Assembly: GCA_900315885.1 (NCBI GenBank)
Contig: ONAT01000004.1
Span: 32,580-96,579 of the forward strand
Source: an uncultured Erysipelotrichaceae bacterium
GTDB lineage: Bacteria; Bacillota_I; Bacilli_A; RFN20; CAG-826
DNA: 64,000 nucleotides
Reading direction: 5' to 3'
The position numbers and the translations under genes are program-made. The number at the start of each line of letters is the position of its first letter. Positions within the stretch are counted from its first letter, which is position 1. Below the pieces are notes generated by a model. It worked only from the letters and a program-made list of their open reading frames with translations. It was not told where the DNA came from and made no database searches. This document shows, piece by piece, positions 5,797 to 49,314 of this stretch.

Positions 5797-5839
5797 TTAA
5801 TAAGGATAGTAATAAAGCATTTATTAATTATTAAATAAA

Positions 5840-5848: not shown

Positions 5849-5875
5849 TTGAATAGCAAAGGAGATTATATAAAT

Positions 5876-31514: not shown

Positions 31515-32741
31515 ATGAAAAAGACTAGATTAAAAAAATATGCAGAATTAATAGTTAAAATGGGCATTAATGTTCAAAAAGGACAAGATGTTATTATTAA
31601 CTGTGGTTTAGACCAACCAGAATTTGTAAAAATGGTCGTAGATTATTGCTATAAGTTTGGAGCAAGAAAAGTAACTGTTGATTGGTATTATCAACCACTT
31701 GATAAATTACACAACCGCTATTGCTCTATTAAGACTTTAGCTTCAGTAGAAAAATGGCAATTAGAAAAATGGCAACATCGTGTTGATACTTTGCCTGCTA
31801 TTCTTTTTATTGACAGTGATAATCCAGATGGTTTAAAGGGAATTAATGAAGAAAAATCTGCGAAAGCACGTATGAAGTCATATCCATTAATTAAACCATT
31901 CCGTGATGCAATGGAAAACAAATATCAATGGTGTATAGCAGCAGTTCCTGGCAAAGAATGGGCTAAAAAAATATTTCCGAATTTATCAACTGCTAAAGCA
32001 ATGGAAAAACTATGGGAAGCAATTTTATATACCGCTCGTGTAGATGAAGATCCAATTAAGGCTTGGGAATTACATAATAAGGATTTAGCGGATAGATGTG
32101 CTTATTTAAATAGTTTGCATTTAAAGAATTTATATTATAAATCCAATAATGGAACAAACTTTAGAGTAGGACTATTGCCTAATGCTCTATTTATGGGAGG
32201 AGAAGAAGTCACTCTTGACCGCAATATTCACTTCAACCCAAATATTCCATCAGAAGAATGTTTTACTTCTCCAAGAAAAGGTGATATTGAGGGTGTAGTT
32301 TATGCCTCAAAACCTCTTTCTTATAATGGACAATTAATTGAAAACTTCTGGTTCAAATTTGAAAATGGTAGAGTTACGGAAGTACATGCTGAAAAAGGTG
32401 AAGAAGTATTACGTCATATGGTGAAAATGGATGATGGTGCTTCAATGTTAGGAGAGGTTGCCTTAATCCCATATAAGTCACCAATTTCAGATTTAAATAT
32501 TTTATTTTACAATACATTATTTGATGAAAATGCTTCATGTCACTTAGCTTTAGGAACAGGCTTCACTAATGCGATTAAAGATTTTGAAAAATACACTAAT
32601 GAAGAATTACATGAAATGGGCATTAATGAATCAATGATTCACGTCGACTTTATGATTGGTAACAAAGATTTATCAATTGTCGGTGAGACAATGTCTGGCG
32701 AGAAAATACAAATCTTTAAAGATGGCAACTGGGCTTTCTAA
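31515..32741 (+). CDS. M29 family aminopeptidase (AmpS/PepS type)
   Basis: LKKYAELIVKMGINVQKGQDV N-terminus and C-terminal HLALG...IHVDFMIG metal-site region. Confidence 0.85.
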   Translation: MKKTRLKKYAELIVKMGINVQKGQDVIINCGLDQPEFVKMVVDYCYKFGARKVTVDWYYQPLDKLHNRYCSIKTLASVEKWQLEKWQHRVDTLPAILFIDSDNPDGLKGINEEKSAKARMKSYPLIKPFRDAMENKYQWCIAAVPGKEWAKKIFPNLSTAKAMEKLWEAILYTARVDEDPIKAWELHNKDLADRCAYLNSLHLKNLYYKSNNGTNFRVGLLPNALFMGGEEVTLDRNIHFNPNIPSEECFTSPRKGDIEGVVYASKPLSYNGQLIENFWFKFENGRVTEVHAEKGEEVLRHMVKMDDGASMLGEVALIPYKSPISDLNILFYNTLFDENASCHLALGTGFTNAIKDFEKYTNEELHEMGINESMIHVDFMIGNKDLSIVGETMSGEKIQIFKDGNWAF

Positions 32742-36700: not shown

Positions 36701-39700
36701 TAATACAACTGATGATTTATATATTTTTGATACAACAAGTTATTTAAAAACAATTATTAGAGATAAGAAAACAAATAATAGTAATGATTTAAATGAAACG
36801 AAAGAAGATGAAGTATATTACTTTTCATCATCTGGAAAATGTGTTAAGAATGTAACTGATGAATTTGTAAACGTATCTTATTACAATCTTGACTTACTTA
36901 AACAAGAGGCAACTTATAGAAATAACGATGAAGTGATTATAAAGCCATTAACAATATATGGAGAAAGTCATGAATATAGTTTCGATTTGACTAGTAACAA
37001 TAATGAGTTATTAAACAAGATAAAGCAAGCAGACCTTATTGGACTTAAATTAGTTTTAAACACAGGAAATGTTGATAACATAGGTATTCTTGATTTGGCT
37101 TTAAGAGTTGATGTTACTACGAGCACTAATAAAGTTGAAACCTTCAGCGAGTCATTCCAAGAGCTTAAACTCCAAGAAGTTGTGTTACCTATTTTTGTTA
37201 ATACAAGTAATATCAAAAAGTTAGTCATAAATGTTACGAGTAAGTCTAGTGACTTCAATGATAGTTATATAGATGTTCTTGACCTTATTGCCTTAGAAAA
37301 TGGTGCCACTTATAAATACGATAATAAAGATAGGTTGATATATAAACAAGATAAAGAAGCAAAGATAACTTATAGCGATTTCGATGCTCATGACAACCCT
37401 TTACAATCAGTTAGTGTTGATAAGTATGACGCAACAGTGACTACTAAATATGCATACGATGTTGAAAATAGATTGACATACGTTGAAGATTCTTTAGGCA
37501 ATGTTAACGAATATTATTACGATGATAATGGACAATGCATTAAAAAGAGATCGTATAATAAAGAAGATGCTTCTTTAGTGCGTCAAGAAACATATGAATA
37601 TGATGATAAAGGACGTATTAAAGATAAAAAAGGACCAATTAAAAATAAAAATAAGGACTATCCTTTAGAACATATTGAATACTTACCTCATAGTGAAGTA
37701 ACCTCAAAGGTTATAGGATATAATAAACTAGCTACAAATTATACCTATGACTATTTAACTAATGACTTATTGTCAATAAGTGCAAGTGCAGATGGTATTA
37801 GTAATTCAAATTCATTTGGCTATACAAAGGGTTTCTTGACATCTGTTTCAAGTCGTGGAGTTAAGGTTAAGTATGTGTATGATGGAAGAGGCAGAATTGA
37901 GTCTATATATCTTAATGATGATAGTGAAGACAATATTGATGGTGATATTGAAGATGATAAAAAGGCTTTTATAAGTAATGCTTATGTCGACAATTATAAT
38001 AGTAATCCAAGTAGTCTAGAAAACGACTTAAATATTAAATATGGCACATATCAAAAATCCACATATAAAAATGGATTAGAGGAAGGCATCTTTACTAACT
38101 CAAAAGGCCAAGTTTTAAGAGTGGAAACTGAAGAAACGGATAGAACTATTAGAATTGATAATACATATGATTCAAATGGTAATATTACAAATACACAAAG
38201 CACAATAACTGAAGGCGATGTTGTAACAACAGAAGATGTTACTTACACATATGATAGTCATAAAAAATTAACTAAAATGGTTAAAAAGATTGATGATGAA
38301 AGTGTATATGAAATAGAGTATGAATATAACGATAGAGATTTAATGGATGGCGAAACTATAAAACTAGATGGTGAAGACATTGAGACTGGATATGATTATG
38401 ATTTAAAAAGAAGGATAACACATGCTCTTCAAGATAATTACAATTGTGATATTACATATGATGCCCTAGATCGTATTACTCATAAAGAAGTCGGAGAAGG
38501 TAACGTTACGATTTGTCATACGTACTCTTATCTTAAAGAAGAAGATAATAGTTTAGATTTAATCGCTAGTGATATCGTTAAAGTCAAAGTGGTAAATGGT
38601 GATAATACAACTTATCAAATTGAAACTAATAGATATAGTTACGACGAAATGGGAAATATCATAGAAATAGATTGTGATGAAAGTAAAACAAGATATAAAT
38701 ATGATGCCTTAAGTAGATTAGAAAGAGAAGATAATCCATCTTTAAATAAAACTATAGTTTATAAGTATGATGAAAAAGGAAATGTCATTTTGAAAAAGAC
38801 CTATTCATATACATTAGATGATAAACTAGAAGAAACTCCTGTCATAGATGAGTATGTGTATTCATGTTCTAATTGGGGAGATCAATTGATTGATTATAAT
38901 GGTAAAACCTTTAAATATGACAATATGGGAAGACCATTAGTGTATAAAGGCGATACATGTACATGGAGTCAACGAGGTGAATTAAAGAGTGTAAAGAAAG
39001 ACAATCAAGAAGCATTTAAATACTATTATGACGCGAATGGTATACGAAACAAGAAAATAGTGAATGGCGTAGAAACAAAATTCGTAGTAGTGGGAACAAA
39101 GATACTAAAAAGCATCATAAAGGTAGGAAATGAAGAAAGAACAATAAAATACAAATACGTTCTAGATAAATTAGAAGGATTTGTATATACTAAAGATGGA
39201 ATATCAAAAGAGTATAGATACGAACGAAATATATTTGGAGATATTACAAGGCTATATAATAGTGAGGGAAGCATAGAAGCAACATATGTATATGATGCAT
39301 ATGGAAGGGTAAAAGTAATAAACTCAATAGGCGAAGAAGACACTAATATAGAATTCATAGGTAATATAAATCCATTTAGATATCGTGGATATTATTTTGA
39401 TATTGAAACAGGATTGTATTACTTAAATAGTAGATATTATGATCCAGAGTTAGGAAGATTTATAAGTCCAGATACAATGGAATATTTAAGCCCTAACAAT
39501 ATTAATGGATTGAATTTATATTGCTATTGTAATAATAATCCGATTAATAAATACGACTCTACAGGACACTTTGGAATTTGGGCAATTATAGGAATTGTAT
39601 GGGCTGCGATTCTTTTAGGAGGAGGGGCTCAATTGGCATCCAATGCACTTGCTGGTGAAACAGGTAGTGATTTATGGCGAGGAGTTGCTGGTTCAGCATT

Positions 39701-40130
39701 GGGTTCTGGTGTAAATGCATTGGCATTAATTTTGGCTCCATTTACTGGGGGAGCCTCATTAGCATTTGCCGCTGGGTTAGGGGCTGTGGTTCAAACTGGC
39801 GTTGATACACTCGAAACAGTTATTAGAGGCGAAAATGTGAATGGTTTGCAAACAGTTGCTGACCTAGGTATTAATTTTGTTACTACATTTGCTGGTAACT
39901 GGTTGGGGGCAAAATTGGTTCCTACGAACAGTGGTTGGTTTCAAACGAAAAATTTCTTGAGTGTATTTATAAAACCTTATGGACAAAAAATTTTATTACA
40001 AACTGCAATTGGTGCTGGACTATCAGGAACTGTCAATTTTGCAAGAAAATTTGACTGGAGTAGTATTGATTGGAGAAAGTTTGTACCAGCAATACCTGTT
40101 CCAATGATTCCAATTTATCCGTATTTTTAG
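33747..40130 (+). CDS. RHS/YD-repeat polymorphic toxin, 2127 aa, no N-terminal signal peptide
   Basis: AGGAGG RBS. Many YD repeats from about residue 845 onward (YEYDDKGRIKDK, YTYDSHKKL, YKYDALSRLERED, YVYDAYGRV). RHS core end RYYDPELGRFISPD...NLYCYCNNNPINKYDSTGH. Confidence 0.95.
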   Translation: MKKIIVKESTNEVIDSSIKEENKIKKDEKQKFFDIKFENNLKNKKVFSLTKDKHQVDLSFLGRKGKELSNAQGVEIGNHVKYTNFEKGLDLSYDYQDNLVKESVIINERKDNYDFSFSLNIGELKPIYNSETRTLELKNNGNTIYRILSPFMVDKNNVRSDDCSYEIEQQDSNLMINLHCDSDWINDESRVFPVVVDPTIEVVGDVIHVKQYVDDSIEESRGLKIGLDRYGVYDLEFVVNCSLLKKNINDFSRVVISLQVMSHLNDMMSSNQEYQLTFGNNKIYAIRHSDIKDVVRFDITDLVLETSTNLNLKFGPVTRDSTIQKINGKVIYRSFKTYFYPFSYSKDESKKSELIIEYDKKKCFNNIKDYNVGKLNSLLIDIRNGDYKIINDLDFKLKSNTIDFDVKAVYDNQNSNNYYMSDYWKTNLHQILEKPSSYQSVLGATRITYVDGLNKKHILMTKWYYVKNNQKNYVQKKDIYLDSDGKLKYNKDGQVYEIKSETTNEEGITYASGNDISNFNQLKDSTKYHYEIKCGVGTISDIQIINYTRIKIPKYVEQIDSNGTEEDIRFENIDIINGKSLISGNNVILKGTQEVALKADGDGLYFKYQVYIDDEVCIEEQRVDIKPDLDNYDANDDIYLNEDILNINSQIKSIENSKRQAYLSLNSAITSIRNLDEQITYQWRLIARTGTKEYDAEFKRLYEDNSIGMKTLKSFITKCNDSEDLNGAFKLDSNGKLQVVLADKVSETKNAGTVLSVISNYLTLLGNKITLLNKTIEKDYSGDYESFQLKLLNRQYNDAKEQMELMINSCFEYDKQLDYLKGQKNQLVNSQKKEINDFIIDKDGNTLGFDGYGHLILIQDRYENKINIEYDYDDIETGRLSRVISDMNTLEYHYNKVTKLLDYIGDSRGVNTKFVYIGDEELQLSSIAGAKETTTFSYGNTFIIKTLLNSLKLIHNDDDTVSVKEYYLNTKIGENITFDSSVDEINTTDDLYIFDTTSYLKTIIRDKKTNNSNDLNETKEDEVYYFSSSGKCVKNVTDEFVNVSYYNLDLLKQEATYRNNDEVIIKPLTIYGESHEYSFDLTSNNNELLNKIKQADLIGLKLVLNTGNVDNIGILDLALRVDVTTSTNKVETFSESFQELKLQEVVLPIFVNTSNIKKLVINVTSKSSDFNDSYIDVLDLIALENGATYKYDNKDRLIYKQDKEAKITYSDFDAHDNPLQSVSVDKYDATVTTKYAYDVENRLTYVEDSLGNVNEYYYDDNGQCIKKRSYNKEDASLVRQETYEYDDKGRIKDKKGPIKNKNKDYPLEHIEYLPHSEVTSKVIGYNKLATNYTYDYLTNDLLSISASADGISNSNSFGYTKGFLTSVSSRGVKVKYVYDGRGRIESIYLNDDSEDNIDGDIEDDKKAFISNAYVDNYNSNPSSLENDLNIKYGTYQKSTYKNGLEEGIFTNSKGQVLRVETEETDRTIRIDNTYDSNGNITNTQSTITEGDVVTTEDVTYTYDSHKKLTKMVKKIDDESVYEIEYEYNDRDLMDGETIKLDGEDIETGYDYDLKRRITHALQDNYNCDITYDALDRITHKEVGEGNVTICHTYSYLKEEDNSLDLIASDIVKVKVVNGDNTTYQIETNRYSYDEMGNIIEIDCDESKTRYKYDALSRLEREDNPSLNKTIVYKYDEKGNVILKKTYSYTLDDKLEETPVIDEYVYSCSNWGDQLIDYNGKTFKYDNMGRPLVYKGDTCTWSQRGELKSVKKDNQEAFKYYYDANGIRNKKIVNGVETKFVVVGTKILKSIIKVGNEERTIKYKYVLDKLEGFVYTKDGISKEYRYERNIFGDITRLYNSEGSIEATYVYDAYGRVKVINSIGEEDTNIEFIGNINPFRYRGYYFDIETGLYYLNSRYYDPELGRFISPDTMEYLSPNNINGLNLYCYCNNNPINKYDSTGHFGIWAIIGIVWAAILLGGGAQLASNALAGETGSDLWRGVAGSALGSGVNALALILAPFTGGASLAFAAGLGAVVQTGVDTLETVIRGENVNGLQTVADLGINFVTTFAGNWLGAKLVPTNSGWFQTKNFLSVFIKPYGQKILLQTAIGAGLSGTVNFARKFDWSSIDWRKFVPAIPVPMIPIYPYF
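39570..40127 (+). other. Rhs C-terminal toxin domain (186 aa, glycine/alanine-rich, hydrophobic)
   Basis: Starts right after the core-terminating NNPINKYDSTGH motif. Small-xxx-small glycine-zipper-like runs: LLGGGAQLASNALAG, GVAGSALGSGVNALALILAPFTGGASLAFAAGLGAVV, AIGAGLSG. Confidence 0.7.
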
Positions 40131-40140
40131 AGGTGAAAAT

Positions 40141-40528
40141 TATGATTATTAAAGATAAATTAATAAAAGAGTATCCGCTAACTAAAAAAATAGATTGTTC
40201 TTTTGAATGCTTTGAAGTTATGAAAAGAAGGTATGTTATTTTTTATGATGAAAAAATCAATAAAGAAAATATGGAATCTTTATTGGATGTATTTAATGAT
40301 AATTCGAAAAATAGCTTTACAGAAAAAAGAACATTAATTATAGTTGGGCATACGGATGAAAAGTTTAATAAAAAAGATTTATTGTTTTTTAACGGAGTTG
40401 ATACATTTGTTGTTTATTATTTAATAAATGATAACAACAAAGAAATTTACTTTAATGATCAAAGAGTGTTCTGGTTCAGTGTTGATTGGAAAAAAATAAT
40501 TAAAAAATTTAATGAAATATTAAAATAA
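40141..40528 (+). CDS. Candidate cognate immunity protein (129 aa, soluble)
   Basis: GAGGTGA RBS overlaps the Rhs stop, and the ATG is 10 nt after it. This is the canonical immunity position. No family recognised. Confidence 0.6.
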
Positions 40529-40555
40529 ATAGTGAATTTCTTTCACAAGCAAAAC

Positions 40556-40598
40556 TAGGTAAGTTTACTCAATGGGTAAGCTTACCTTTATTTTTTAT
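40556..40598 (+). terminator. Rho-independent terminator after the toxin-immunity pair
   Basis: AGGTAAGTTTAC / GTAAGCTTACCT hairpin followed by TTATTTTTT. Confidence 0.65.
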
Positions 40599-40620
40599 GG
40601 TATGGATTCAAAAATAGTCA

Positions 40621-40818
40621 AATTCACGATTTCTATTTACAAAAATCTTTTAAATATTTCATCTGAATGTTAAAATTAAAATAAAGATAGGGGTGAAATA
40701 ATACACGGGTTAATAATGTAATAACAATATAATGTAAAAAAATTAAAAAAATTCATATAATTATTTTCAAAATATTTATATACAATATTTTAGAAAATAT
40801 ATTAGTTAGCTAATTAGA
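40621..40818 (+). repeat. Direct repeat copy 1 (198 nt), upstream region of the 40844 cassette
   Basis: Aligns with 43444..43631. I count 4 substitutions, one 9-nt tandem duplication (AAAAAAATT) and a 1-nt indel. Confidence 0.9.
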
Positions 40819-40843
40819 CACATCAAAGGTTGGAAATTTAAGA

Positions 40844-41053
40844 ATGAAAAAAAAGACGTTTTATCAAACTAATATTTTTTGGCAGTTATTTTGTTTTGTG
40901 TTTCTTGCAATTTTTATATTGATTTTTATAGTCACTGTGCAATGTATTATTGCAATTATAAAAAATGGATTTGGTAAAACAATTTCCGATATAATGGCCT
41001 CTGTGTTTATATTAGCAGTACTTGTTATTGGTTGTTCATTGGCGTTAATCTAA
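40844..41053 (+). CDS. 2-TM N-terminal half of an interrupted 2TM+PH-like gene
   Basis: 69 aa with two hydrophobic helices. Its TAA at 41051 is in frame with ORF 41105..41449, and no other stop lies between them. Confidence 0.5.
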   Translation: MKKKTFYQTNIFWQLFCFVFLAIFILIFIVTVQCIIAIIKNGFGKTISDIMASVFILAVLVIGCSLALI

Positions 41054-41104
41054 TTCATTATTTTAGAACACAACAATGTTCATTTAACAAAAGACAAAAT
41101 ATAT

Positions 41105-41449
41105 ATGAACAATGATTGGAATCCAAAGAAAGATAAAATACAATATTATACTGAAGCATATTTTGCTGATATTGAATCTATTGATATTATTTGGACAAAA
41201 ATGGATTCTAGAGGTAAATTGATTAGACCTAAGCTTATCTCTGCTTCAGTAGAAAAGCCATATTTATCTATAAAAACTAAAGATGGTAAAATATCTAATT
41301 TCTTTGTCATGTATATTCCGAAGAAAAATGTAATAAAAATAATAAATGAAATTAGTTATCGAATGAAAAGTGTAGGGAACAATATTAAGATTATTAATTC
41401 CGATGAAGCATATTTAAAAATTAAGAAAAAAATTTATATCGATATCTAG
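41105..41449 (+). CDS. Soluble C-terminal half of the interrupted 2TM+PH-like gene
   Basis: Same frame as 40844..41053. No SD precedes ATG 41105. The layout matches the soluble halves of 44667..45080 and 45979..46467. Confidence 0.45.
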   Translation: MNNDWNPKKDKIQYYTEAYFADIESIDIIWTKMDSRGKLIRPKLISASVEKPYLSIKTKDGKISNFFVMYIPKKNVIKIINEISYRMKSVGNNIKIINSDEAYLKIKKKIYIDI

Positions 41450-41503
41450 ATATTAAATTATTAAATAGTCACATGAACTAGCAAGAGTATAACTGTTTCA
41501 AGA

Positions 41504-41522
41504 TGTCTTTTTTTAAAAGACA
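41504..41522 (+). repeat. 19-bp palindrome copy 2: TGTCTTTT-TTT-AAAAGACA
   Basis: Perfect 8-3-8 inverted repeat. Confidence 0.9.
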
Positions 41523-41577
41523 AATTTTTCTAAAATTAAAATAGTAAATTGCGATAACACAATTTATCAATTGAATA

Positions 41578-41862
41578 TTGCTAGATTCAATCAAACAATT
41601 AATCAATTGGCATGGCGGAATTGCCTTACTGATTGCTTTCGGAATAAGTACTGTTTTAGGTGGTGTATATGGAAGCGTATCAGTTGCTGAAAGTATACTT
41701 TATGATATTAATAATCCTTATGGGTTTAGAGACTGTGATTGGGGAGAATTTAAACTACATCCAGATCTAGACTTAGAAGAAAAAATTAATCAATTTGAAA
41801 TATTAGGAGATTATAAAGAAGACTTAAGAAAAAGAAGAGAAAAATGGTATAAAGAAGTATGA
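41578..41862 (+). CDS. Small single-TM protein (94 aa) coupled to the cyclase gene
   Basis: TTG start with no obvious SD. Glycine-rich TM GGIALLIAFGISTVLGGVYGSV. The stop TGA overlaps the GAGGTG RBS of the cyclase, whose ATG is 8 nt downstream. Confidence 0.35.
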   Translation: MLDSIKQLINWHGGIALLIAFGISTVLGGVYGSVSVAESILYDINNPYGFRDCDWGEFKLHPDLDLEEKINQFEILGDYKEDLRKRREKWYKEV

Positions 41863-41870
41863 GGTGATAA

Positions 41871-42620
41871 ATGATGTATGAATATGATTATATAAACGGA
41901 AAAAGAAGAGTAAACGAGATACTAAATGATTCCAATGAAATTGAGGCAAAAGAGAAAGTACCAAAAGAAAATGATTTTACTTTTCATAATGGTTATTTTG
42001 CTTGGGTTACTGCTGTATTTGTTGACATAAGGGATTCAACATCAATTTTCACAGAAAATAAGAAGACTTCAACTTCAAAAATTATAAGAGCATTTACTTC
42101 CGAAGTAATTGGAATTTTAAAGGACGACGATAATTTGCGCGAAATTGGTATTAGAGGAGATTGTGTATATGCTATCTATACTACATCCCAAAAATACGAA
42201 GATTATGAAATTGCGAATAAAGTGTTTTATGTAAATACTTTTATGAAAATGTTAAATAAATTATTGCAAAACAAAAACATGAAAACTATTAAAGTTGGGA
42301 TTGGCGTTTCTACAGCACAAGAACTAGTTGTTAAAGCCGGAAGAGAAAAAACTGGCATTAATAACTTAGTATGGATTGGAAAAGCGGTAACTTATGCTTC
42401 TAAATTTTCTTCTTTAGCAAATTCTAATGATTATAATAACATTATTTTTTCCGACAACTTTTATAATAGTTTTATTGGGGATTTAAAAAATAACAATAAA
42501 AATAAAAATGTTGAATCTTGGTTTAAGCAACATAGAGATAGCAAATTGGGTTATTTTTACGACTGTGACATAATCAAATCAGAATTCAATGATTGGATTG
42601 AAAATGGTATGAAAGGATAA
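41871..42620 (+). CDS. Stand-alone class III nucleotidyl cyclase (Pycsar PycC-like)
   Basis: Cyclase homology-domain motifs in order: AVFVDIRDSTSIF (metal Asp 1), IRGDCVYAIY (metal Asp 2), IKVGIGVSTAQELVVKAG, VWIGKAVTYASKFSSLA. 249 aa with no other domain. Confidence 0.7.
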   Translation: MMYEYDYINGKRRVNEILNDSNEIEAKEKVPKENDFTFHNGYFAWVTAVFVDIRDSTSIFTENKKTSTSKIIRAFTSEVIGILKDDDNLREIGIRGDCVYAIYTTSQKYEDYEIANKVFYVNTFMKMLNKLLQNKNMKTIKVGIGVSTAQELVVKAGREKTGINNLVWIGKAVTYASKFSSLANSNDYNNIIFSDNFYNSFIGDLKNNNKNKNVESWFKQHRDSKLGYFYDCDIIKSEFNDWIENGMKG

Positions 42621-42635
42621 CAAAGGAGAGTTTAG

Positions 42636-43142
42636 ATGAACAAAAATGAAGAAAAATATGAAATTTTATCTGGGATAAGTAATCAAATATCATCTTTTGA
42701 TAATAAAGCGAGCATTTTAATTTCAGCTATAGGAATTGTTTTCGCATTATCTTTATCTTTCTTAGATGTGTTTTGTGAAGATGATTTTTTATCAAAATGT
42801 CAAATTTTTAAAATAATTTACTATGCATTATTTATATTATTTATTATCAATACAATTGTTGTAATAGGTTCATATATATTAGTTATTATTCCTAGGAAGA
42901 AAATTGGAAATAATAAATATGCAAATTATTATAACGACATTGCTGATTTAGATATTTATGGTCATAAGGAATATGATGATTTGTTAGAAGATTATACAAA
43001 AAACGATAATTTACTTACAGAACAAATTATTATTAATTCAAAGATATGTAAAACCAAACATTTATTTTTGAAAGTTGGTATAATATCATTAATACCATTT
43101 TCAATATTGTTATTGGTTCTTATTGTACTGACAATAATTTAA
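42636..43142 (+). CDS. Multi-TM effector (Pycsar PycTM-like)
   Basis: AAGGAG RBS 15 nt after the cyclase stop. N-terminal helix with the SFDNKASILISAIGIV motif as I recall it for Pycsar effector domains. 3-4 hydrophobic segments, 168 aa. Confidence 0.65.
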   Translation: MNKNEEKYEILSGISNQISSFDNKASILISAIGIVFALSLSFLDVFCEDDFLSKCQIFKIIYYALFILFIINTIVVIGSYILVIIPRKKIGNNKYANYYNDIADLDIYGHKEYDDLLEDYTKNDNLLTEQIIINSKICKTKHLFLKVGIISLIPFSILLLVLIVLTII

Positions 43143-43351
43143 TTAACAAATATTAAATACGAGATTCCTGCTTTTTTAATATGTAAACTATGTTTTCTGG
43201 TTTCATCAAGGTGTGATGGCACAAGATGCTGTGGCAGATTGTAATCAGTCTTATCTACTTTACGAAACATGATTGATTTTATAGAAAAAGTTTTAAAAAC
43301 TGAGTTTTTAATACCTTCTTTAGCCTATTAGGTGTAAGGAGGTATTTTTAT

Positions 43352-43465
43352 ATGATGCAAATTGTTTTAAATAAGAATACATATTTTATTAACGAATCAT
43401 TTAATGGGGCAACAAGAACATTAATCAATATTCTTAAGAATAGAATTCACTATTTCTATTTATAA
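43352..43465 (+). CDS. Small ORF (37 aa), possibly a truncated gene remnant
   Basis: Strong AAGGAGG RBS. Its 3' end (KNRIHYFYL*) lies inside direct repeat copy 2. Copy 1 has CAA where this copy has the TAA stop. Confidence 0.3.
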   Translation: MMQIVLNKNTYFINESFNGATRTLINILKNRIHYFYL

Positions 43466-43631
43466 AAATCTTTTAAATATTTCATCTGAATGTTAAAATT
43501 AAAATAAAGATAGGGGTGAAATAATATACGGGTTAATAACGTAATAACAATATAATGTAAAAAAATTCATATAATTATTTTCAAAATATTTATATACAAT
43601 ATTTTAGAAAATATATTAGTTAGTAATTAGA
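43444..43631 (+). repeat. Direct repeat copy 2 (188 nt), upstream region of the 43644 cassette
   Basis: See copy 1. The similarity ends just before the RBS of the downstream gene in both copies. Confidence 0.9.
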
Positions 43632-43643
43632 GGGAGACTATCT

Positions 43644-44246
43644 GTGATTATATTTAAAAGAGAAAAAAATGCATTGTTGAAATTTAAGCAATATATAGAA
43701 GGGGAAATGGATTTTGATACTTTCTGGCAAGAATATATTGCTTGTGGCGATTTAATGAAATATTTATGCAAGTTTGATCAAAGAAGGCGTGAAGAATTTT
43801 TGATTAATAATGATTTCATAAATTATTTTTATAACGGAAAACCTGCTTTTCAGTTAAAAGTTGGCTTACAGGCATCAATAATGGCATATTTGAAGAAAAG
43901 AAAAATTAAATTTGAAAACAAAACAAAAGAATATGTTCTATGGGAAAAATGGAATAGTTATATACCAGATTTTGTTCCTTGTAATGAATCAATGTATTAT
44001 TTTATGGAAAACTTAGACAATGGCGTTAGACACTCAAAAAAATATTATCGTGACTATTTTTCAAAGATTTATCAATACGTAAAATATTATCCGCGATGGT
44101 TGCAAATGTGCGAATGGCCTATGGATGATGATGGAACCCCAACTAAATTCTTGTATCAAACTGGTTTTCCTAATAAACATGATTTTATTGAGTATTGGTT
44201 TCTAAAAAAAGATGGTACAAAAATTAAAATAGAACAATACGATTAA
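43644..44246 (+). CDS. Hypothetical soluble protein (200 aa), immunity-protein-like
   Basis: AGGGAG then GTG 43644. Trp/Tyr-rich. No catalytic motif recognised. Confidence 0.55.
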   Translation: MIIFKREKNALLKFKQYIEGEMDFDTFWQEYIACGDLMKYLCKFDQRRREEFLINNDFINYFYNGKPAFQLKVGLQASIMAYLKKRKIKFENKTKEYVLWEKWNSYIPDFVPCNESMYYFMENLDNGVRHSKKYYRDYFSKIYQYVKYYPRWLQMCEWPMDDDGTPTKFLYQTGFPNKHDFIEYWFLKKDGTKIKIEQYD

Positions 44247-44313
44247 TGAGTGCTCAATGTCGGGGACTACAATTAGTGACTTGGTTTTTTTGAAAATTAA
44301 ATGGCTATTAGTA

Positions 44314-44486
44314 GTGTTTAGATGTGTTACTAAAAACGGATTAAAGGTTGCTGAAGTTGTCAGTAAAGACCAGACTTATGTTAGTCAAGTTGCTAAAGTT
44401 GAAGAATGATTGGACAATATTCTCATATATCTAATGGACTAACTCTAGATGCTTTACTATTTATTACAAAATGGTTTGTATTCTAA
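44314..44486 (+). pseudogene. Decayed XRE-type HTH gene remnant (two frames)
   Basis: 44314..44409 reads ...GLKVAEVVSKDQTYVSQVAKVEE*. Shifted frame 44412..44486 reads GQYSHISNGLTLDALLFITKWFVF*. Together they resemble an HTH_3 fold broken by a frameshift. Confidence 0.3.
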
Positions 44487-44534
44487 AAATATCTATTTTT
44501 TTGATTAATGATTAATTGTTTGGAGGTGCATTAT

Positions 44535-44645
44535 GTGAATTCTAAATTTACTTTAAGATTCTTGGCAGCACTAATTGCTGGTGGAACAGAAACTGCCTAT
44601 GATTTAACATCATATTTAATTGGGAAATTAATTTCAGCTTTTTAG
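44535..44645 (+). CDS. Small ORF (36 aa, VNSKFTLRFLAALIAGGTETAYDLTSYLIGKLISAF)
   Basis: GGAGGTG precedes GTG 44535. It ends 12 nt before the RBS of the next gene. It may be a peptide or an orphan toxin-tail fragment. Confidence 0.25.
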   Translation: MNSKFTLRFLAALIAGGTETAYDLTSYLIGKLISAF

Positions 44646-44666
44646 TCATTAGGAGGATTGATTATT

Positions 44667-45080
44667 TTGAAACAAAAATTTTATAAAAATTTATTTCAAA
44701 CGATGTCATATTTTGCTGTAATAATAATTTTCGAGGTGTTTTTACTTATTGGTTTTTTTGCTAGTTTAAGTTATGGTCAAAATTTTGGTTGGATACTATT
44801 GATAATATCTTTATCTTTAATTGCATTATTCTATCTAATAGGGTTTTATTGGATTTTCCAAATAGTATCTATTGATGAACATGGAATTAAAATATTATTC
44901 AAAAGTAAAATTGTTAAGCAACTTAAATGGGAAGAAATAGATACAATAGAAGAAGCAAATATAATGAGAAATCCAGCACTAAGAATTAAAGCATTTGATG
45001 GAAGTGAAATTCATTTAGATAAAAGAAAACAAATTGTTAAAGCGATAGAAATATATTCGCAAAATAAAATAATAAAATAA
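44667..45080 (+). CDS. 2-TM + PH-like small membrane protein (paralog B)
   Basis: AGGAGG at 44651-44656. TTG 44667 has better spacing than TTG 44658. Two TM helices, then a soluble IVSIDEHGIKILFKSKIVKQLKWEEIDTIE... domain. Confidence 0.6.
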   Translation: MKQKFYKNLFQTMSYFAVIIIFEVFLLIGFFASLSYGQNFGWILLIISLSLIALFYLIGFYWIFQIVSIDEHGIKILFKSKIVKQLKWEEIDTIEEANIMRNPALRIKAFDGSEIHLDKRKQIVKAIEIYSQNKIIK

Positions 45081-45172
45081 TTTTATTTAACGCACTGTAA
45101 AAACAGATATTATTAGATTAGTAGGAGACATTGCAAGTTCAATATTCAATAATTTTTAGGAGGACATAAACT

Positions 45173-45358
45173 ATGTGGGAATTTATTAAATATTGTCTAT
45201 ATTGTTTATTAATGTCAATCTCTGCTGCTTTTGGAAACAATCCTGAGGGAATGACATTCAAACACGCAATAGTTGGAAGTATTACAATGTTTGTATTATT
45301 AGGATTAGCTTTGGGCATTCTTTGGTTAATTGCAAGGGTTGTTAATAAATCTAGATAA
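45173..45358 (+). CDS. Small 2-TM membrane protein (61 aa)
   Basis: TAGGAGGA RBS 7 nt upstream. Two hydrophobic segments. Confidence 0.5.
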   Translation: MWEFIKYCLYCLLMSISAAFGNNPEGMTFKHAIVGSITMFVLLGLALGILWLIARVVNKSR

Positions 45359-45396
45359 AATGTAACTTACAAGGTTTATATAGGAGATTAGTTTTA

Positions 45397-45702
45397 ATGG
45401 AAAAACAAAAAAAGAAAAAAACATTAAAATATACAAAATGTTTTAAAGTATATGAAAAAGAATTAACATGGGATTTATTTATTAAATATTTAAATGATAA
45501 TATGGAATTTTGCTTTTATTTGAATGATATAACAATTGATATTGCTTTTCATTATAAGGACAAAATAAAAGTATATGAATTAAATATTTCTTCAGGTGAA
45601 AATAGAACTAATTTAAATTTTAATTCAATAGATGAACTTATTTCTTTTAAAGCTTTTAACAATAAATCACTTTATGATATTTGGGACGAATTAGAGAATT
45701 AA
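45397..45702 (+). CDS. Hypothetical small soluble protein (101 aa)
   Basis: TAGGAGA RBS. Followed by a terminator. No family recognised. Confidence 0.5.
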   Translation: MEKQKKKKTLKYTKCFKVYEKELTWDLFIKYLNDNMEFCFYLNDITIDIAFHYKDKIKVYELNISSGENRTNLNFNSIDELISFKAFNNKSLYDIWDELEN

Positions 45703-45727
45703 TTAATAAATTAACATCTCATTAGTT

Positions 45728-45769
45728 AGATGCATTTGCTACATTAAAGTAGTAGATGCATCTTTTTTT
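45728..45769 (+). terminator. Rho-independent terminator
   Basis: AGATGCAT...ATGCATCT outer stem plus CTAC/GTAG inner stem, followed by TTTTTTT. Confidence 0.6.
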
Positions 45770-45865
45770 GTGTGTAAAGAAATTTTAATAATATTTTTAA
45801 AATTGACCCTCACATTTGTTATTTTAAATGCCCAGTACTATTGAAGGGGGACTCAATTGTTTAAA

Positions 45866-45884
45866 TGTCTTTTCAGAAAAGACA
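45866..45884 (+). repeat. 19-bp palindrome copy 3: TGTCTTTT-CAG-AAAAGACA
   Basis: Perfect 8-3-8 inverted repeat. Confidence 0.9.
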
Positions 45885-45978
45885 AATTAAATCTGTTTTT
45901 TTGATAGATTTCAAATGTTGATTAGCAAAAAATAAAAGCAACTTTTTATAATTGTGATATGATTAAGAAAAAGGAGCT

Positions 45979-46467
45979 ATGGTTTTTGTGAAAAAGATTT
46001 ATTCAAATAAGTCCGTTATTTACTTTTCAATCTTTGGGATTGTTTTTATATCAATAATAATGATTTTGAGTATTATTTCCTTAATGTCTAATGTGGAAGA
46101 AACTACAAATAATATTCTTATGATTATTGTGTTGATATTAATATATTTATTCTTTTTAGTGTTGTTTGTTTTTTCGTTAAATAAATTTGGATATAAAGTA
46201 ATATATGATAGTAATAAAAAAGTTATTTCTAAAAAAGGATTTATCTTTGGACACGAATACCAAATAAAGCTAGAAGATATAAAAGAAGTGGCGGTGTTAT
46301 CACTACCAAAAGAAACAGCTTATTATGTTTTAACTGATTCAAAAGATGATAAACAAGAATCATTTATTAAAATTAAGAAAACAAAAAAGAATGAGGCTTT
46401 TGTAAAACAATTTTGGGATAAAGCAATTAAGGAATACGAAGATTACGAAGAATTGTTTAATAAATAA
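45979..46467 (+). CDS. 2-TM + PH-like small membrane protein (paralog C)
   Basis: AAGGAG RBS. Two TM helices, then YKVIYDSNKKVISKKGFIFGHEYQIKLEDIKEVAV... and a C-terminal helix. Confidence 0.6.
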   Translation: MVFVKKIYSNKSVIYFSIFGIVFISIIMILSIISLMSNVEETTNNILMIIVLILIYLFFLVLFVFSLNKFGYKVIYDSNKKVISKKGFIFGHEYQIKLEDIKEVAVLSLPKETAYYVLTDSKDDKQESFIKIKKTKKNEAFVKQFWDKAIKEYEDYEELFNK

Positions 46468-46509
46468 TTTTAGATATAGTTTTAAATATTGGAAGATTAT
46501 TTATGTTTT

Positions 46510-46537
46510 TTAAGTATATTTAATACTCTGTTATAAT
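46510..46537 (+). promoter_or_regulatory. Candidate promoter TTAAGT-16 nt-TGTTATAAT (extended -10)
   Basis: TGnTATAAT at 46529-46537. Palindrome copy 4 starts 8 nt downstream, so it would cover the transcription start. Confidence 0.4.
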
Positions 46538-46544
46538 CACTAAT

Positions 46545-46563
46545 TGTCATTTTAGAAAAGACA
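46545..46563 (+). repeat. 19-bp palindrome copy 4: TGTCATTT-TAG-AAAAGACA (one mismatch)
   Basis: 8-3-8 inverted repeat with one mismatch. Confidence 0.85.
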
Positions 46564-46589
46564 AAACTAGTTTGCTTTAGAGTGCAAAA

Positions 46590-46608
46590 TGTCTTTTTGG
46601 AAAAGACA
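46590..46608 (+). repeat. 19-bp palindrome copy 5: TGTCTTTT-TGG-AAAAGACA, extendable to 12-3-12 and followed by a T-run
   Basis: AAAATGTCTTTT-TGG-AAAAGACATTTT then TTTGTTTTT. It has intrinsic-terminator geometry. Confidence 0.9.
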
Positions 46609-46643
46609 TTTTTTTGTTTTTGACATGTGTGCAAGTTGAGAAT

Positions 46644-46662
46644 TGTCTTTTGATAAAAGACA
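46644..46662 (+). repeat. 19-bp palindrome copy 6: TGTCTTTT-GAT-AAAAGACA
   Basis: Perfect 8-3-8 inverted repeat. Confidence 0.9.
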
Positions 46663-46746
46663 AAAGTAAATAGTCTGTAGCCATTACTTCATAATTAATC
46701 GTATAAATAGTATGCATATTACGTATAAATTATTAGAGGAACGAGT

Positions 46747-49314
46747 ATGCACTATAACGAAAGCGTAGAAAAGGTACTGAATGACACTGGTAGTGGATTT
46801 ATAGGATTAAAAGAAGAAGAGGCAAAAAGACGTTTTGATAAGAGTAAACCTAATGAAATTAGGCATACTGAAAAAACGACACTGTTTAAAATTATTCTTA
46901 ATCAAATCAAAGATGCAATGGTTATTATTCTTTTAATCGCAAGTATCTTATCTTTTTTATTACATGATTATTTGGAAGGTATCGTAATTATTATTATTGT
47001 TTTTATAGATACGATTATTGGCGTATTACAAGAATATAAAGCTGAAACAGCTATTGAATCCTTAAAACAATTAGCGCCGAATTATTCTTATGTAATACGT
47101 GATAATAAAATAAGAAAAATATTAAGTAGAGAAGTTGTAGTGGGTGATATTGTAGTTTTAGATGAAGGTAATTTAGTACCTGCAGATTTAAGACTAATAT
47201 CTTCAACTGGTTTAAGAGTCACAGAATCATCACTTACAGGTGAGGCTTTAGCGGTTAATAAGACTAGTGAAGTCGTTTTAAAAGATGGAACTCCATTAGG
47301 AGATCGAGTTAACATGGCTTTTTCTTCTTCGCTTGTAACATATGGGCATGGTTTAGGTGTAGTTGTAGCTATAGGTATGGATACAGAGGTTGGTAAAATC
47401 GCTCACATCCTTTCACATCAAAACAAATTTAAAACGCCTCTTAAAACTAAATTAGAGGATATAGGAAAAAAATTATCTTTAATTGGTATCTTTATTTGTT
47501 TCTTTATTTTTACAATCGGTATTATTAATGGTTTATCATGGGAACCATTAATGATGACATCTATTGCTTTAGCAATCTCAATAATTCCTGAAGGATTACC
47601 AGCAACTGCGACAATTGTTTTAGCGATTGGTGTGGAGCGGATGGCGAAAAAGCAAGTTTTAGTACGTAAATTACCATCCGTAGAAACATTAGGCTCAACT
47701 TCTATTATATGTTCAGATAAAACAGGAACTTTGACACAAAACAAGATGAATGTAATTGATGTTGTTTCAGGAAATAAAGAAGAACTATATAATTGTATTG
47801 CTTTAGCTAATAACGCTAAATACCAAGATGATAAATATATTGGTGATCCAACAGAAGTTGCTTTAGCTTCTTTTATTAAAGATAATTATCTTAAAATAAA
47901 TGAAAAATATTCACGCATAAAAGAAATTCCCTTTGATTCCAAAAGAAAAAAAATGACAGTAATTATAAAAAAACAAGGCGGATATGATGCATATTCTAAA
48001 GGGGCAATTGAAGAATTGTTAAATCACGCGAACAAAGAATATGTTAATAATAGGGCTATTCCTTTAACAAGTGCTAGAAAAAAAGAATTAATCGCACAAA
48101 GTGAAAAATATTCTCTTAAAGCGTGTCGTGTTATGACGTTTACCAAAAAAGAGAATGTTAATCCTTTAGATAATAATATTGAAGATGATGTGATATTTAT
48201 TGGTATGGTTTCAATGTTTGATCCACCGAAAGAAGACGTGAAAAAAGTTTTAGAAAGAACAAAAAAATCAGGAATTAAGACAGTTATTATGACAGGAGAC
48301 CATCCTTTGACCGCGGAAAGTATCGCACGTCAAATTGGTATATATGAAAGTCCAGCTTTAACAGGCTATGATTTAACAAATATTGATGATAGTCAATTAG
48401 CCTCGTTAGTAAAAAAACACAACATTTTTGCACGTGTTTCTCCCTATGATAAGTTACGTATTATCAAAGCCTATAAACAAAACAATGAAGTTGTGGCAAT
48501 GATTGGTGATGGTGTTAATGACGCACCAGCGCTTAAGACATCTGATTTAGGCATTGCTATGGGGAAAAACGGCACAGATGTTGCTAAAGAAGCTTCGGAT
48601 ATGATTTTGCTTGATGATAATTTTTCTTCTTTGGTGGATGCGATATTTGAAGGACGTAAAGTGTTTAAAAACATTCAAAAGGTAATTCAATTTCTTCTTG
48701 CGGGAAATGTGGGAGAAATTCTTACTCTTTTAATTGCCATAACATTAGGATTTAGATTTATGCCTCTTAGCGCTGTACAAATTTTATGGATTAATCTTGC
48801 TACAGATACTTTACCTGCTTTAGCCTTAGGAGTAGACCCAATTAACTCAGAAATTCTTAATGAAAAACCTAAAAAACGAGATAGTTTTATGGACAAAGCA
48901 CTAATAAAAAGAGTTATTTGTAATGGATTAGTTATGGCACTTTTAACAATTACTGCTTATTTAATTGGCTATAAAAGAAGTTTGTATTTAGGAAAAACTT
49001 TTGATGTTTCTAATGCAATAGGACAGACAATGGCACTTTGTGTTTTAGCTTTTTCACAATTAATTCACGCTTTTAACCAGCGCTCAAATAAAGATTCTAT
49101 TTTCTCCGCTAAAATGGTTATGAATAAATATCTAGTCTTAGCATTAGTAATTTCATTTGGACTTATCTTTGCTATTTTATTTATTCCTTTTTTTCAAAAT
49201 ATCTTTAATTTCACGAATTTAGACTTAAGTGAGTGGCTAATTGTTATTTCATTTTCCTTTTTTATAATGTTTATCAATGAATTATTTAAACTTTTTAGGT
49301 ATCATAAGCGATAA
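46747..49314 (+). CDS. P-type cation-transporting ATPase (P2/Ca2+-ATPase-like)
   Basis: TGE-type actuator motif (SLTGEA), IIPEGLPA, phosphorylation site CSDKTGTLTQN, TGDHPLTA, GDGVNDAPALK. 855 aa. Confidence 0.9.
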   Translation: MHYNESVEKVLNDTGSGFIGLKEEEAKRRFDKSKPNEIRHTEKTTLFKIILNQIKDAMVIILLIASILSFLLHDYLEGIVIIIIVFIDTIIGVLQEYKAETAIESLKQLAPNYSYVIRDNKIRKILSREVVVGDIVVLDEGNLVPADLRLISSTGLRVTESSLTGEALAVNKTSEVVLKDGTPLGDRVNMAFSSSLVTYGHGLGVVVAIGMDTEVGKIAHILSHQNKFKTPLKTKLEDIGKKLSLIGIFICFFIFTIGIINGLSWEPLMMTSIALAISIIPEGLPATATIVLAIGVERMAKKQVLVRKLPSVETLGSTSIICSDKTGTLTQNKMNVIDVVSGNKEELYNCIALANNAKYQDDKYIGDPTEVALASFIKDNYLKINEKYSRIKEIPFDSKRKKMTVIIKKQGGYDAYSKGAIEELLNHANKEYVNNRAIPLTSARKKELIAQSEKYSLKACRVMTFTKKENVNPLDNNIEDDVIFIGMVSMFDPPKEDVKKVLERTKKSGIKTVIMTGDHPLTAESIARQIGIYESPALTGYDLTNIDDSQLASLVKKHNIFARVSPYDKLRIIKAYKQNNEVVAMIGDGVNDAPALKTSDLGIAMGKNGTDVAKEASDMILLDDNFSSLVDAIFEGRKVFKNIQKVIQFLLAGNVGEILTLLIAITLGFRFMPLSAVQILWINLATDTLPALALGVDPINSEILNEKPKKRDSFMDKALIKRVICNGLVMALLTITAYLIGYKRSLYLGKTFDVSNAIGQTMALCVLAFSQLIHAFNQRSNKDSIFSAKMVMNKYLVLALVISFGLIFAILFIPFFQNIFNFTNLDLSEWLIVISFSFFIMFINELFKLFRYHKR

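Follow-up and report, generated by a model that had tools for sequence, protein, structure and literature searches.

A probable two-gene Pycsar defence cassette of cyclase and three-TM effector in the Rhs tail of an uncultured Erysipelotrichaceae bacterium

Pycsar systems with a transmembrane effector, which consist of the cyclase PycC and its partner PycTM, were reportedly described by Tal et al. in 2021. cUMP is formed by cyclases of clades A to D and cCMP by those of clade E alone (Hou et al. 2024, PMC11224242), and an N-terminal α-helix ahead of the cyclase core is considered a hallmark of PycC (PMC11224242). Transmembrane effectors are used by clade C (Liu et al. 2026, PMC13069673). The related Pucsar systems combine a stand-alone, cGMP-producing cyclase PucC with PucTM or PucTIR. 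Their effector EcPucTM, a member of the same pJV1-spdB3/PycTM family of three-TM proteins, is a hexameric channel that needs Q16 and F98 for defence (10.64898/2026.08.12.744502).

The locus considered here is located in a window of 64,000 nucleotides (the whole stretch of DNA that was analysed) from an uncultured human-gut Erysipelotrichaceae bacterium. A preliminary description had read it as a Pycsar module, and this reading is supported by profile HMMs, structure and co-conservation. Both open reading frames were recovered exactly where they had been placed, 15 nt apart on the plus strand:

41871 to 42620, plus strand: pycC, ATG start, 249 aa, stand-alone Pycsar cyclase
42621 to 42635, plus strand: spacer of 15 nt between pycC and pycTM with a GGAG ribosome-binding site, read from the sequence
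42636 to 43142, plus strand: pycTM, ATG start, 168 aa, three-TM effector

The short spacer and the GGAG site would fit transcription of pycC and pycTM on one message. The best explanation of the pair, to which we assign a probability of about 0.9, is a two-gene Pycsar abortive-infection system of PycC and PycTM that most likely signals through cUMP. It shares with the described PycC and PycTM systems a stand-alone cyclase of approximately 250 aa with N-terminal helix, class III fold and two metal-binding aspartates, an adjacent three-TM effector of the PF18967/DUF5706 (pJV1-spdB3) type in a two-gene operon, full-length HMM matches, and a patchy occurrence on mobile elements or in defence contexts. 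No difference is apparent at the system level; notable in this locus are the cyclase-first gene order and the position within an Rhs array.

The assignment of the cyclase is based on several lines of evidence. PDLC02368, a PADLOC PycC model dated 2023, matches the protein over its full length (E=1.3e-86, 288 bits), and six more PADLOC PycC models match as well; the match to PDLC02370 has E=6e-5. A family-profile search of the PDB ranked all four solved PycC structures first (8jsz, 1.3e-11; 7r65, 9e-10; 6yii, 6e-4; 8jsf, 2e-3), while canonical adenylate cyclases gave E>0.1 in the same search. The AlphaFold model (pLDDT 92.7) retrieved 7r65 first in Foldseek (TM 0.78/0.84), followed by 8jsz (0.74/0.72), with canonical cyclases at TM ~0.59. 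Two of the checks suggested in the preliminary description, a search with defence-system HMMs and a comparison with characterised PycC structures, thus point to PycC and not to housekeeping cyclases, with 7r65 and 8jsz as the closest folds. A helix at residues 7-18 precedes the core in the monomer model (pLDDT 84-89), and Y5, G10, K11 and R13 in this region are invariant in the clade alignment. In line with the earlier claim of a cyclase devoid of sensor or further domains, Pfam recognizes PF00211 alone (29.5 bits; cut-off, 21.9). An NCBIfam scan gave no match for either the cyclase or PycTM.

All cyclase motifs that had been quoted are present, namely VFVDIRDST (residues 49-57), IRGDCVYAIY (94-103), VGIGVSTAQELVVKAG (142-157) and WIGKAVTYASKFSSLA (168-183). 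They contain the catalytic aspartate pair shared with BcPycC (7R65, the B. cepacia cUMP synthase of clade B) and AnPycC (8JSZ, the Anabaena uridylate cyclase of clade D): D52 and D97 align with D52/D96 of BcPycC and, by motif, with D62/D106 of AnPycC, and both are invariant among 21 clade members. Sequence identity to these two enzymes is only ~20%, and they share an Asn where the present cyclase has Thr174, a site occupied by T, S or A within the clade. Asn at this position is the canonical ribose contact. Four residues further on, the Lys/Arg site holds K or N in the clade and Lys178 here. Given Thr in place of Asn and the K/N variation at the next site, catalytic details may differ from those of other PycC enzymes.

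A clade-specific pocket of five invariant residues (F50, G93, R95, C98 and Y100) does not coincide with any of the three characterised triads. F50, R95 and Y100 occupy the positions of F60, K104 and F109 in AnPycC, whereas the Y50/D94/R97 triad of BcPycC corresponds to F50/R95/C98. A check for clade E traits showed that F100, R142 and Q144 of EaPycC are replaced by F50, G93 and R95. Clade E enzymes also feature a Y-shaped C-terminal β structure. With these residues, a length of 249 aa versus ~340 aa and weak matches to 8jsf (2e-3) and PDLC02370, the protein does not appear to be a cytidylate cyclase of clade E. Likewise, it does not resemble an AnPycC-type enzyme of clade D: its best model is PDLC02368 rather than PDLC02369, and the zinc ribbon that AnPycC requires for activity (C221/C223/C260/H263) is absent, as the last 45 residues hold just one Cys and do not show a CxC...CxxH pattern. 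Among the models PDLC02366-02370, BcPycC (clade B) fits PDLC02367 best and AnPycC (clade D) fits PDLC02369 best, although the older models PDLC00766 and PDLC00763 outscore these. Because of this order, PDLC02368 probably represents clade C, an assignment that follows the PADLOC model numbering and not a tree. Taking the putative clade C membership together with the clade D-like pocket, the product is most likely cUMP. The preliminary description was right that the nucleotide cannot be read from the sequence with certainty; the evidence nevertheless leans toward cUMP. A solved structure for this PycC clade was not among the matches of the PDB search, nor are specificity residues for it stated in the Pycsar literature surveyed.

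The same architecture could also operate with a different signal, either cCMP in analogy to clade E or a purine cyclic nucleotide such as cGMP in analogy to Pucsar, and with an effector tuned to it. We regard this as unlikely. The invariant pocket that matches none of the three triads leaves room for it, specificity not being certain from sequence, and the cytidylate cyclase EaPycC likewise combines a Phe (F100) with an Arg near the second metal-binding Asp (R142), so that Arg95 could in principle mimic R142/Q144 and direct the enzyme to cCMP. In addition, cGMP is made by close relatives of Pycsar-1 cyclases that work with the same three-TM effector family (Pucsar preprint, 10.64898/2026.08.12.744502). 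On the other hand, cUMP synthases are the best matches in both sequence and structure, with the cytidylate cyclase 8jsf reaching E=2e-3 only, and clades A to D are cUMP makers according to the literature. The cGMP cyclases of Pucsar use Glu118 and Lys195; invariant Gly93, which lies four residues before D97, is found where PfPucC has the guanine-contacting Glu118 (compared by position, not by alignment) and EaPycC has Arg142, and this argues against membership in Pucsar. The cyclase moreover fits the older PycC model from 2023 over its full length, while the E. coli 'clade F' branch has been described as distant from such sequences.

A more far-reaching variant is that this PycC clade employs a catalytic and base-recognition arrangement unlike that of any characterised PycC, in which case the signal might not be cUMP. 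This idea draws on the invariant pocket, Thr in place of Asn and the missing zinc ribbon, and appears doubtful, more so than a mere change of nucleotide. If it were true, the signal might be cCMP, a purine cyclic nucleotide or a mixture. In many relatives, a single PycTM is flanked by a pair of paralogous cyclases; this arrangement could reflect two signals, or a heterodimeric cyclase, acting on one pore. Since the pocket of the clade differs from the three characterised triads, the identity of the product would fill a gap.

The second protein belongs to the PycTM family. PADLOC model PDLC02364 matches it over the full length (E=3.8e-19), and Pfam PF18967 is reached with 27.3 bits, barely over the cut-off of 27.2; among 62 PycTM homologues, 61 contain PF18967 and the exception is a 92-aa fragment. 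The partner is consequently not a member of an unrelated family, an outcome that the preliminary description had named as speaking against a Pycsar system. Of the three to four TM helices proposed there, hydropathy and the AlphaFold model agree on three (approximately residues 25-45, 59-84 and 144-166) and do not bear out a fourth. The model is all-helical (pLDDT 84.9). An N-terminal cytosolic helix bears Q17 and FDNKA, the latter as part of the previously noted FDNKASIL, which was located at residues 21-28; the cytosolic loop 85-143 bears PR, NYY, QIxINSxIC and KH. These motifs, including Q17 and Y98/Y99, are invariant in the homologue alignment. Q17 and Y98/Y99 parallel the required Q16 and F98 of EcPucTM, and abortive infection through a hexameric pore is likely shared. 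Searches of the PDB with the PycTM sequence gave noise (E>1) and Foldseek with its model gave no match at E<0.001, which is consistent with there being no PycTM or PucTM structure in the PDB copy searched. CBASS 2-TM effectors are likewise small, nucleotide-activated membrane proteins, but the corresponding PADLOC models match much more weakly than PycTM (best E=2.8e-8), a CD-NTase is not found nearby, and the partner is a class III-fold cyclase. In RefSeq, homologues of the effector are named 'Pycsar system effector family protein'.

A working scheme for the PycC and PycTM pair can be drawn by analogy with published Pycsar and Pucsar work, from which the nucleotide, the trigger, the ligand site, the pore and the abortive outcome are adopted. 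A homodimeric PycC of class III fold would stay idle until phage infection. The active enzyme, with two divalent metals bound by D52 and D97, would then form a 3',5'-cyclic mononucleotide from a pyrimidine NTP, most likely cUMP from UTP. The signal is probably bound by the cytosolic motifs of PycTM (Q17, FDNKA, PR, NYY, QIxINSxIC and KH), whereupon the effector probably forms an oligomeric pore in the membrane or opens one. Membrane integrity would collapse and growth would stop before phage replication is completed.

Co-conservation of the two genes in other genomes, a lack of which had been named as a reason to abandon the Pycsar reading, is pronounced. Among 80 related loci distributed over many phyla, the cyclase is accompanied by an adjacent PycTM in 73 cases (72 on the same strand) and by an adjacent PycTIR in three, which amounts to linkage with either effector in 76 of 80. 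Three of the other four loci are cut by the contig end or too short to show a neighbour, and the fourth is L060. Most relatives from the clade display the order TM to cyclase, often with a second cyclase, as compared with cyclase to TM here. The distribution is patchy over phyla, and strains of one organism differ in whether they carry the pair; such natural variation in sister strains may be usable for metagenomic phage-host association studies. At least 21 independent contigs from different samples encode exactly the same protein; this recurrence and the HMM E-values of 1e-86 and 4e-19 place the features of the pair well beyond chance. Relative to the mobile copy L087, PycC has a dN/dS of 0.086 and PycTM one of 0.137; hence, both genes are under purifying selection.

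These data also bear on whether the cassette is merely a decaying relic that is unexpressed or inactive in the present genome. A truncated remnant directly upstream, the recombination-prone array and the scarcity of regulatory signals would fit such a scenario: candidate promoter sites are no commoner than in shuffled sequence, so none was assigned, no convincing terminator was found for the cassette, and the sole terminator-like hairpin (40557-40587) is situated upstream of it. Against this, both reading frames are intact and of full length for their families, all clade-invariant residues are kept, and the ribosome-binding site and the 15-nt spacing are preserved. With dN/dS values of 0.09-0.14 and an identical protein in different samples, decay is improbable.

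The genomic surroundings are defined by the following features:

33747 to 40130, upstream of the pair: Rhs protein (PF05593, 39.5 bits)
40621 to 40809, no strand assigned: left copy of a direct repeat of ~190 bp (repeat search, families D1 and D2, and blastn)
41578 to 41862, plus strand: 94-aa open reading frame, a chimeric truncated remnant that stops 8 nt ahead of pycC
41696 to 43159, plus strand: extent of the Pycsar cassette (blastn against L087/L088, 85% nucleotide identity)
43444 to 43623, no strand assigned: right copy of the ~190-bp direct repeat (repeat search, families D1 and D2)

The preliminary description had placed the pair beside a polymorphic toxin locus. An Rhs gene indeed lies upstream, but the pair is not beside this locus: it sits inside its variable, immunity-type tail. 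The copy in L087, which is 85% identical at the nucleotide level, resides on a serine-recombinase/MobL element, and the pair of 1.46 kb moves as a unit. Further copies are found beside a DpnII restriction-modification system, at another site with HNH and Fic genes, and on plasmids, for instance on pUC06D of L. lactis, where the neighbouring gene is annotated as 'Pycsar system effector family protein'. The direct repeats bracket the segment that contains the cassette, and the right copy is located just upstream of a 200-aa orphan immunity-type gene. The island of the pair is variable and low in GC (0.23-0.29 versus 0.30-0.33). The pair came into the recombination-prone Rhs tail as a mobile cassette that originated from a mobilisable element, and its position shows that the swapping of CT and immunity modules at Rhs loci can shuffle phage-defence cassettes, too.

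Conceivably, the two genes could instead serve the Rhs locus, as an orphan toxin/immunity pair or a delivery accessory rather than as an independent phage defence. They are surrounded by small unannotated ORFs of the immunity or orphan type, all on the same strand, and the island yielded no further defence gene: none of nine small ORFs matched PADLOC, and Pfam returned sub-threshold noise alone. Nonetheless, such a role is very improbable. The same two genes are found where no Rhs gene is present, in the sister strain L004 and on unrelated backbones (the MobL element, next to the DpnII system and on plasmids); the sister strains L096 and L097 have the Rhs locus but lack the pair; the stretch homologous to the mobile copy at the nucleotide level is confined to 41696-43159; both proteins fall into defence-system families; and the listed neighbourhoods of close relatives contain no Rhs gene. 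That the cyclase might be a housekeeping cAMP or cGMP enzyme with an unrelated membrane neighbour, as the RefSeq label of its homologues ('adenylate/guanylate cyclase domain-containing protein') and the generic Pfam domain PF00211 could suggest, can be dismissed in view of the absent sensor domain, the far weaker canonical matches in sequence and structure, the tight linkage to PycTM or PycTIR, the patchy and strain-variable distribution, and the lack of both the canonical K/D or E/C base-recognition pair and the Asn/Arg pair, with Gly93 at the K/E site and Thr174/Lys178 at the latter.

The PycC and PycTM pair is an ordinary new member of the catalogued Pycsar family and is recognized by current defence-system models. 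PADLOC or DefenseFinder would call the locus automatically, and beyond annotation it matters little in this respect. It does add a clean minimal Pycsar system from an uncultured human-gut Erysipelotrichaceae bacterium and documents a defence cassette that was caught from a mobilisable element by the tail of an Rhs locus.

Two candidates for additional components were considered and rejected. A 175-aa HTH-type gene precedes pycC in L087; as a conserved regulator it is not plausible, since none of the 80 related loci has a homologue of it. Structured RNAs were not detected in an Rfam scan of positions 40000-47000. The 94-aa open reading frame upstream of pycC starts with TTG right after a stop codon and has no visible ribosome-binding site. 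It was discarded as a third component, since no homologue turned up in the 80 loci and the reading frame is a shortened version of a donor-element gene, its residues 40-88 matching positions 119-167 of the 175-aa L087 protein at 84% identity.

The cyclase and membrane protein form an ordinary, intact two-gene Pycsar system (PycC plus PycTM) from an already catalogued clade; the type is known, and this uncharacterised example adds a member to it. Re-reading of the sequence placed both ORFs where the preliminary description had them, with all of its quoted motifs present in the two proteins:

41871-42620, + strand: pycC, 249-aa ORF
15-nt spacer between the two genes, + strand: contains a GGAG ribosome-binding site
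42636-43142, + strand: pycTM, 168-aa ORF

PADLOC-DB bears out the proposed family membership of both proteins. PycC is covered along its whole length by model PDLC02368 (288 bits, E=1.3e-86), with weaker matches to six further PycC models, and its partner matches three PycTM models (best E=3.8e-19, full length). CBASS 2-TM effector models give the partner no more than weak hits. Pfam detects PF00211 in PycC and no other significant domain, as expected for the stand-alone cyclase first described, and PF18967 (PycTM, formerly DUF5706) in PycTM with a score just at the gathering cut-off. The latter family is found in 61 of the 62 detectable PycTM homologues, the exception being a 92-aa fragment, and the NCBI entry identical to PycTM is named 'DUF5706 domain-containing protein [Erysipelotrichaceae bacterium]'. 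An NCBIfam scan returned no model matching PycC or PycTM. Of all sequences in the PDB, a profile built from 21 PycC relatives (alignment A1) placed the four solved PycC enzymes first, i.e. AnPycC (8jsz, E=1.3e-11), BcPycC (7r65, E=9e-10), PaPycC (6yii, E=6e-4) and EaPycC (8jsf, E=2e-3), with mammalian adenylate cyclases at E>0.1. The structural comparison agrees: the AlphaFold model of PycC (pLDDT 92.7, pTM 0.89) is nearest to 7r65 (TM 0.78/0.84) and then to 8jsz (TM 0.74/0.72), compared with a TM of ~0.59 at most for canonical class III cyclases. In alignment, D52 and D96, which bind metal in BcPycC, fall opposite Asp52 and Asp97, both invariant across the clade. Both genes are full length, retain all clade-invariant residues and are under purifying selection, with dN/dS values of 0.086 (PycC) and 0.137 (PycTM) relative to the copy in locus L087. 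On the - strand, a 43-aa ORF (43139-43270), predicted as a gene in L006, overlaps the end of pycTM at its stop codon.

The pairing is also conserved. In a survey of relatives restricted to one genome per species, 80 loci with cyclase identities of 43-68% were collected from Bacillota, Mollicutes, Fibrobacterota, Elusimicrobiota, Melainabacteria, Campylobacterota, Bacteroidota, Actinomycetota and Proteobacteria (e.g. Neisseria, Psychrobacter, Haemophilus). An iterated HMM search over every ORF located a PycTM homologue directly beside the cyclase in 73 loci (same strand in 72), so that the Pycsar reading now has both family membership and co-conservation behind it. The order is cyclase before TM gene in the window and its closest relatives and the reverse in most others. 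Three further loci, L063 (2908-3771), L079 (1655-2545) and L080 (6699-7586), carry in place of PycTM a PycTIR-type CNBD-TIR protein adjoining the cyclase (E ~1e-62 to 1e-71) together with a second, clade D-like cyclase; effectors have therefore been swapped within one cyclase clade. No assignable PycTM or PycTIR neighbour was found in the remaining four, three of them being cut by a contig end or too short, the fourth being L060. Second cyclases occur in ~30 of the 80 loci, either as a paralogue at ~200 bits or as a different-clade PycC of ~470 aa, in agreement with 'Pycsar-1' as described in a preprint on the cGMP branch, Pucsar (10.64898/2026.08.12.744502). Such pairs could work as a heterodimer, respond to two triggers or produce two signals. 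Two cyclases flank or precede a single PycTM in L007, L013-L016, L019, L022, L025, L027-L029, L035, L036, L043, L069, L076, L090 and L091.

Of the three to four TM helices originally suggested for the effector, three are retained. Hydropathy yields three hydrophobic segments (~25-45, ~59-84 and ~144-166), preceded by an N-terminal helix of 24 residues and with a polar loop of 58 residues between TM2 and TM3, and the AlphaFold model (pLDDT 84.9, helices only) has the same layout, leaving three helices rather than four. The invariant polar motifs (Q17, F21-D-N-K-A25, P86-R87, N97-Y-Y99, Q130-I-x-I-N-S-x-I-C138 and K141-H142) all lie within predicted cytosolic parts. For EcPucTM, a pJV1-spdB3 3-TM protein like PycTM, the Pucsar preprint reports a cylindrical hexamer around a ~15 A central channel, loss of defence in the Q16A and F98A variants, and MOI-dependent growth arrest (10.64898/2026.08.12.744502). 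As Q17 and Y98/Y99 of the window's PycTM are invariant at similar positions, matched by residue number only, this suggests by analogy an assembly or ligand site common to both proteins.

As to the nucleotide, cUMP is the best guess and a fairly probable one, judged from clade and pocket residues. Among PADLOC models PDLC02366-02370, the best fit is PDLC02367 for partial BcPycC (clade B) and PDLC02369 for partial AnPycC (clade D) sequence; PDLC00766 and PDLC00763, which are older, outscore these two. Hence, the series probably follows clades A-E of Tal et al., in which case the window's PycC (PDLC02368) would probably belong to clade C. Clades A-D convert UTP into cUMP, cCMP arising from clade E only (Hou et al. 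2024, PMC11224242), and TM effectors are used by clades C and E (Liu et al. 2026, PMC13069673). With the two metal-binding Asp residues as reference points, F60, K104 and F109 of AnPycC, needed for its cUMP synthesis, correspond to F50, R95 and Y100, while Y50, D94 and R97 of BcPycC correspond to F50, R95 and C98. F100, R142 and Q144 of EaPycC become F50, G93 and R95 here, and the guanine-contacting Glu118 of PfPucC, four positions ahead of the second metal-binding Asp, becomes the invariant Gly93. A less probable product would be cCMP or a purine cyclic nucleotide. Where BcPycC, AnPycC and canonical class III cyclases have a conserved ribose-contacting Asn, the window's PycC has Thr174 (codon 42390-42392; T/S/A across the clade), and the Lys four residues further on alternates with Asn in the clade.

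A mobilisable element was the source of the pair, which arrived as a 1.46-kb cassette. In L087 an 87% identical pair belongs to an element that also encodes a MobL relaxase and a large serine recombinase, and nucleotide homology to the window (85% identity) is confined to 41696-43159, i.e. both genes with flanks of 175 nt (upstream) and 17 nt (downstream). The exact PycC sequence occurs on at least 21 contigs, most of them of human-gut metagenomic origin; MAG GCA_022777715.1 has it too. The settings of relatives are unrelated to one another: a 68% relative adjoins a DpnII-type R-M system (L090, which also holds a second cyclase), another neighbours HNH and Fic genes, and further relatives are plasmid-borne (Lactococcus, Bacillus and other genera); beside the cyclase of L. 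lactis pUC06D is a gene that bears the annotation 'Pycsar system effector family protein'. Ruminococcus phage NatCom_28274 (PV036439.1 1970-2683) encodes a full-length distant cyclase homologue (31% identity) annotated as hypothetical protein.

The surroundings of the cassette comprise:

31515-32741: peptidase M29 gene, island flank
40621-40809 and 43444-43623: left and right copies of a ~190-bp direct repeat, with the inner part of a probable swapped-in block between them
41578-41862, + strand: 94-aa ORF, stop 8 nt before pycC
43644-44246: 200-aa gene, 4.1 kb from a different Rhs tip
46747-49314: P-type ATPase gene, island flank

The 94-aa ORF is chimeric: its first 39 residues are a Gly-rich hydrophobic stretch and its C-terminal 49 derive from an HTH gene, residues 40-88 being 84% identical to residues 119-167 of the 175-aa HTH-type protein whose gene (5472-5999) precedes pycC in L087. 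It starts with TTG immediately after a stop codon, with no visible RBS. As a truncated HTH-gene copy with no homologue in the 80 related loci, it is ruled out as a third system component and is a remnant marking the left junction of the cassette.

The island is low in GC (0.23-0.29 vs 0.30-0.33) and consists mostly of a 2127-aa Rhs protein (PF05593) and small unannotated ORFs. A polymorphic toxin locus is thus present as described, only that the pair is lodged within its variable tail rather than next to it. Sister contigs cover all combinations: Rhs and Pycsar co-occur in the window, L001, L003 and L005; L002 has Pycsar and a longer orphan array, and L004 (GCA_022777715.1) has lost the whole Rhs gene, window position 33416 meeting 40427 (L004 8577/8567 junction), and kept Pycsar and the downstream array. 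L096 and L097 have no Pycsar: there the 200-aa gene starts 6 nt after a 2129-aa Rhs, and homology of L096 to the window ends at 39546, the conserved Rhs core end, and restarts at 43645. This makes the 200-aa gene a probable immunity gene for another Rhs C-terminal toxin, orphaned in the window, and 39547-43644 would then probably be a swapped-in block, carrying an alternative toxin tip with its downstream gene, the Pycsar cassette and two small ORFs. Rhs C-terminal toxin/immunity swapping has occurred at this locus (window 39547-43644 vs L096 7360-8001).

The direct repeats (95-100% identical, one 9-nt indel; third copy in L099) enclose a 2.6-kb segment with three small ORFs and the Pycsar pair, and may serve in recombination or represent an intergenic or promoter element repeated within the Rhs orphan array. 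From the end of cassette homology (43159) to the right copy (43444) are 284 nt. The Rhs C-terminal ~190 aa (39550-40130), after an NPINKYDSTGH motif, are Gly- and Ala-rich; they had no Pfam match and look like a glycine-zipper, membrane-active toxin. The gene right after Rhs (40070-40528; 152 aa, 128 aa in another call) is unannotated. Just past it lies a terminator-like hairpin (40557-40587; 14-bp stem, then T-run), the sole one in 40000-44500, which suggests a single transcription unit for Rhs and its downstream gene, with separate transcription of the array beyond. Where the window has a 114-aa ORF (41105-41449), L004 and L006 have one of 170 aa.
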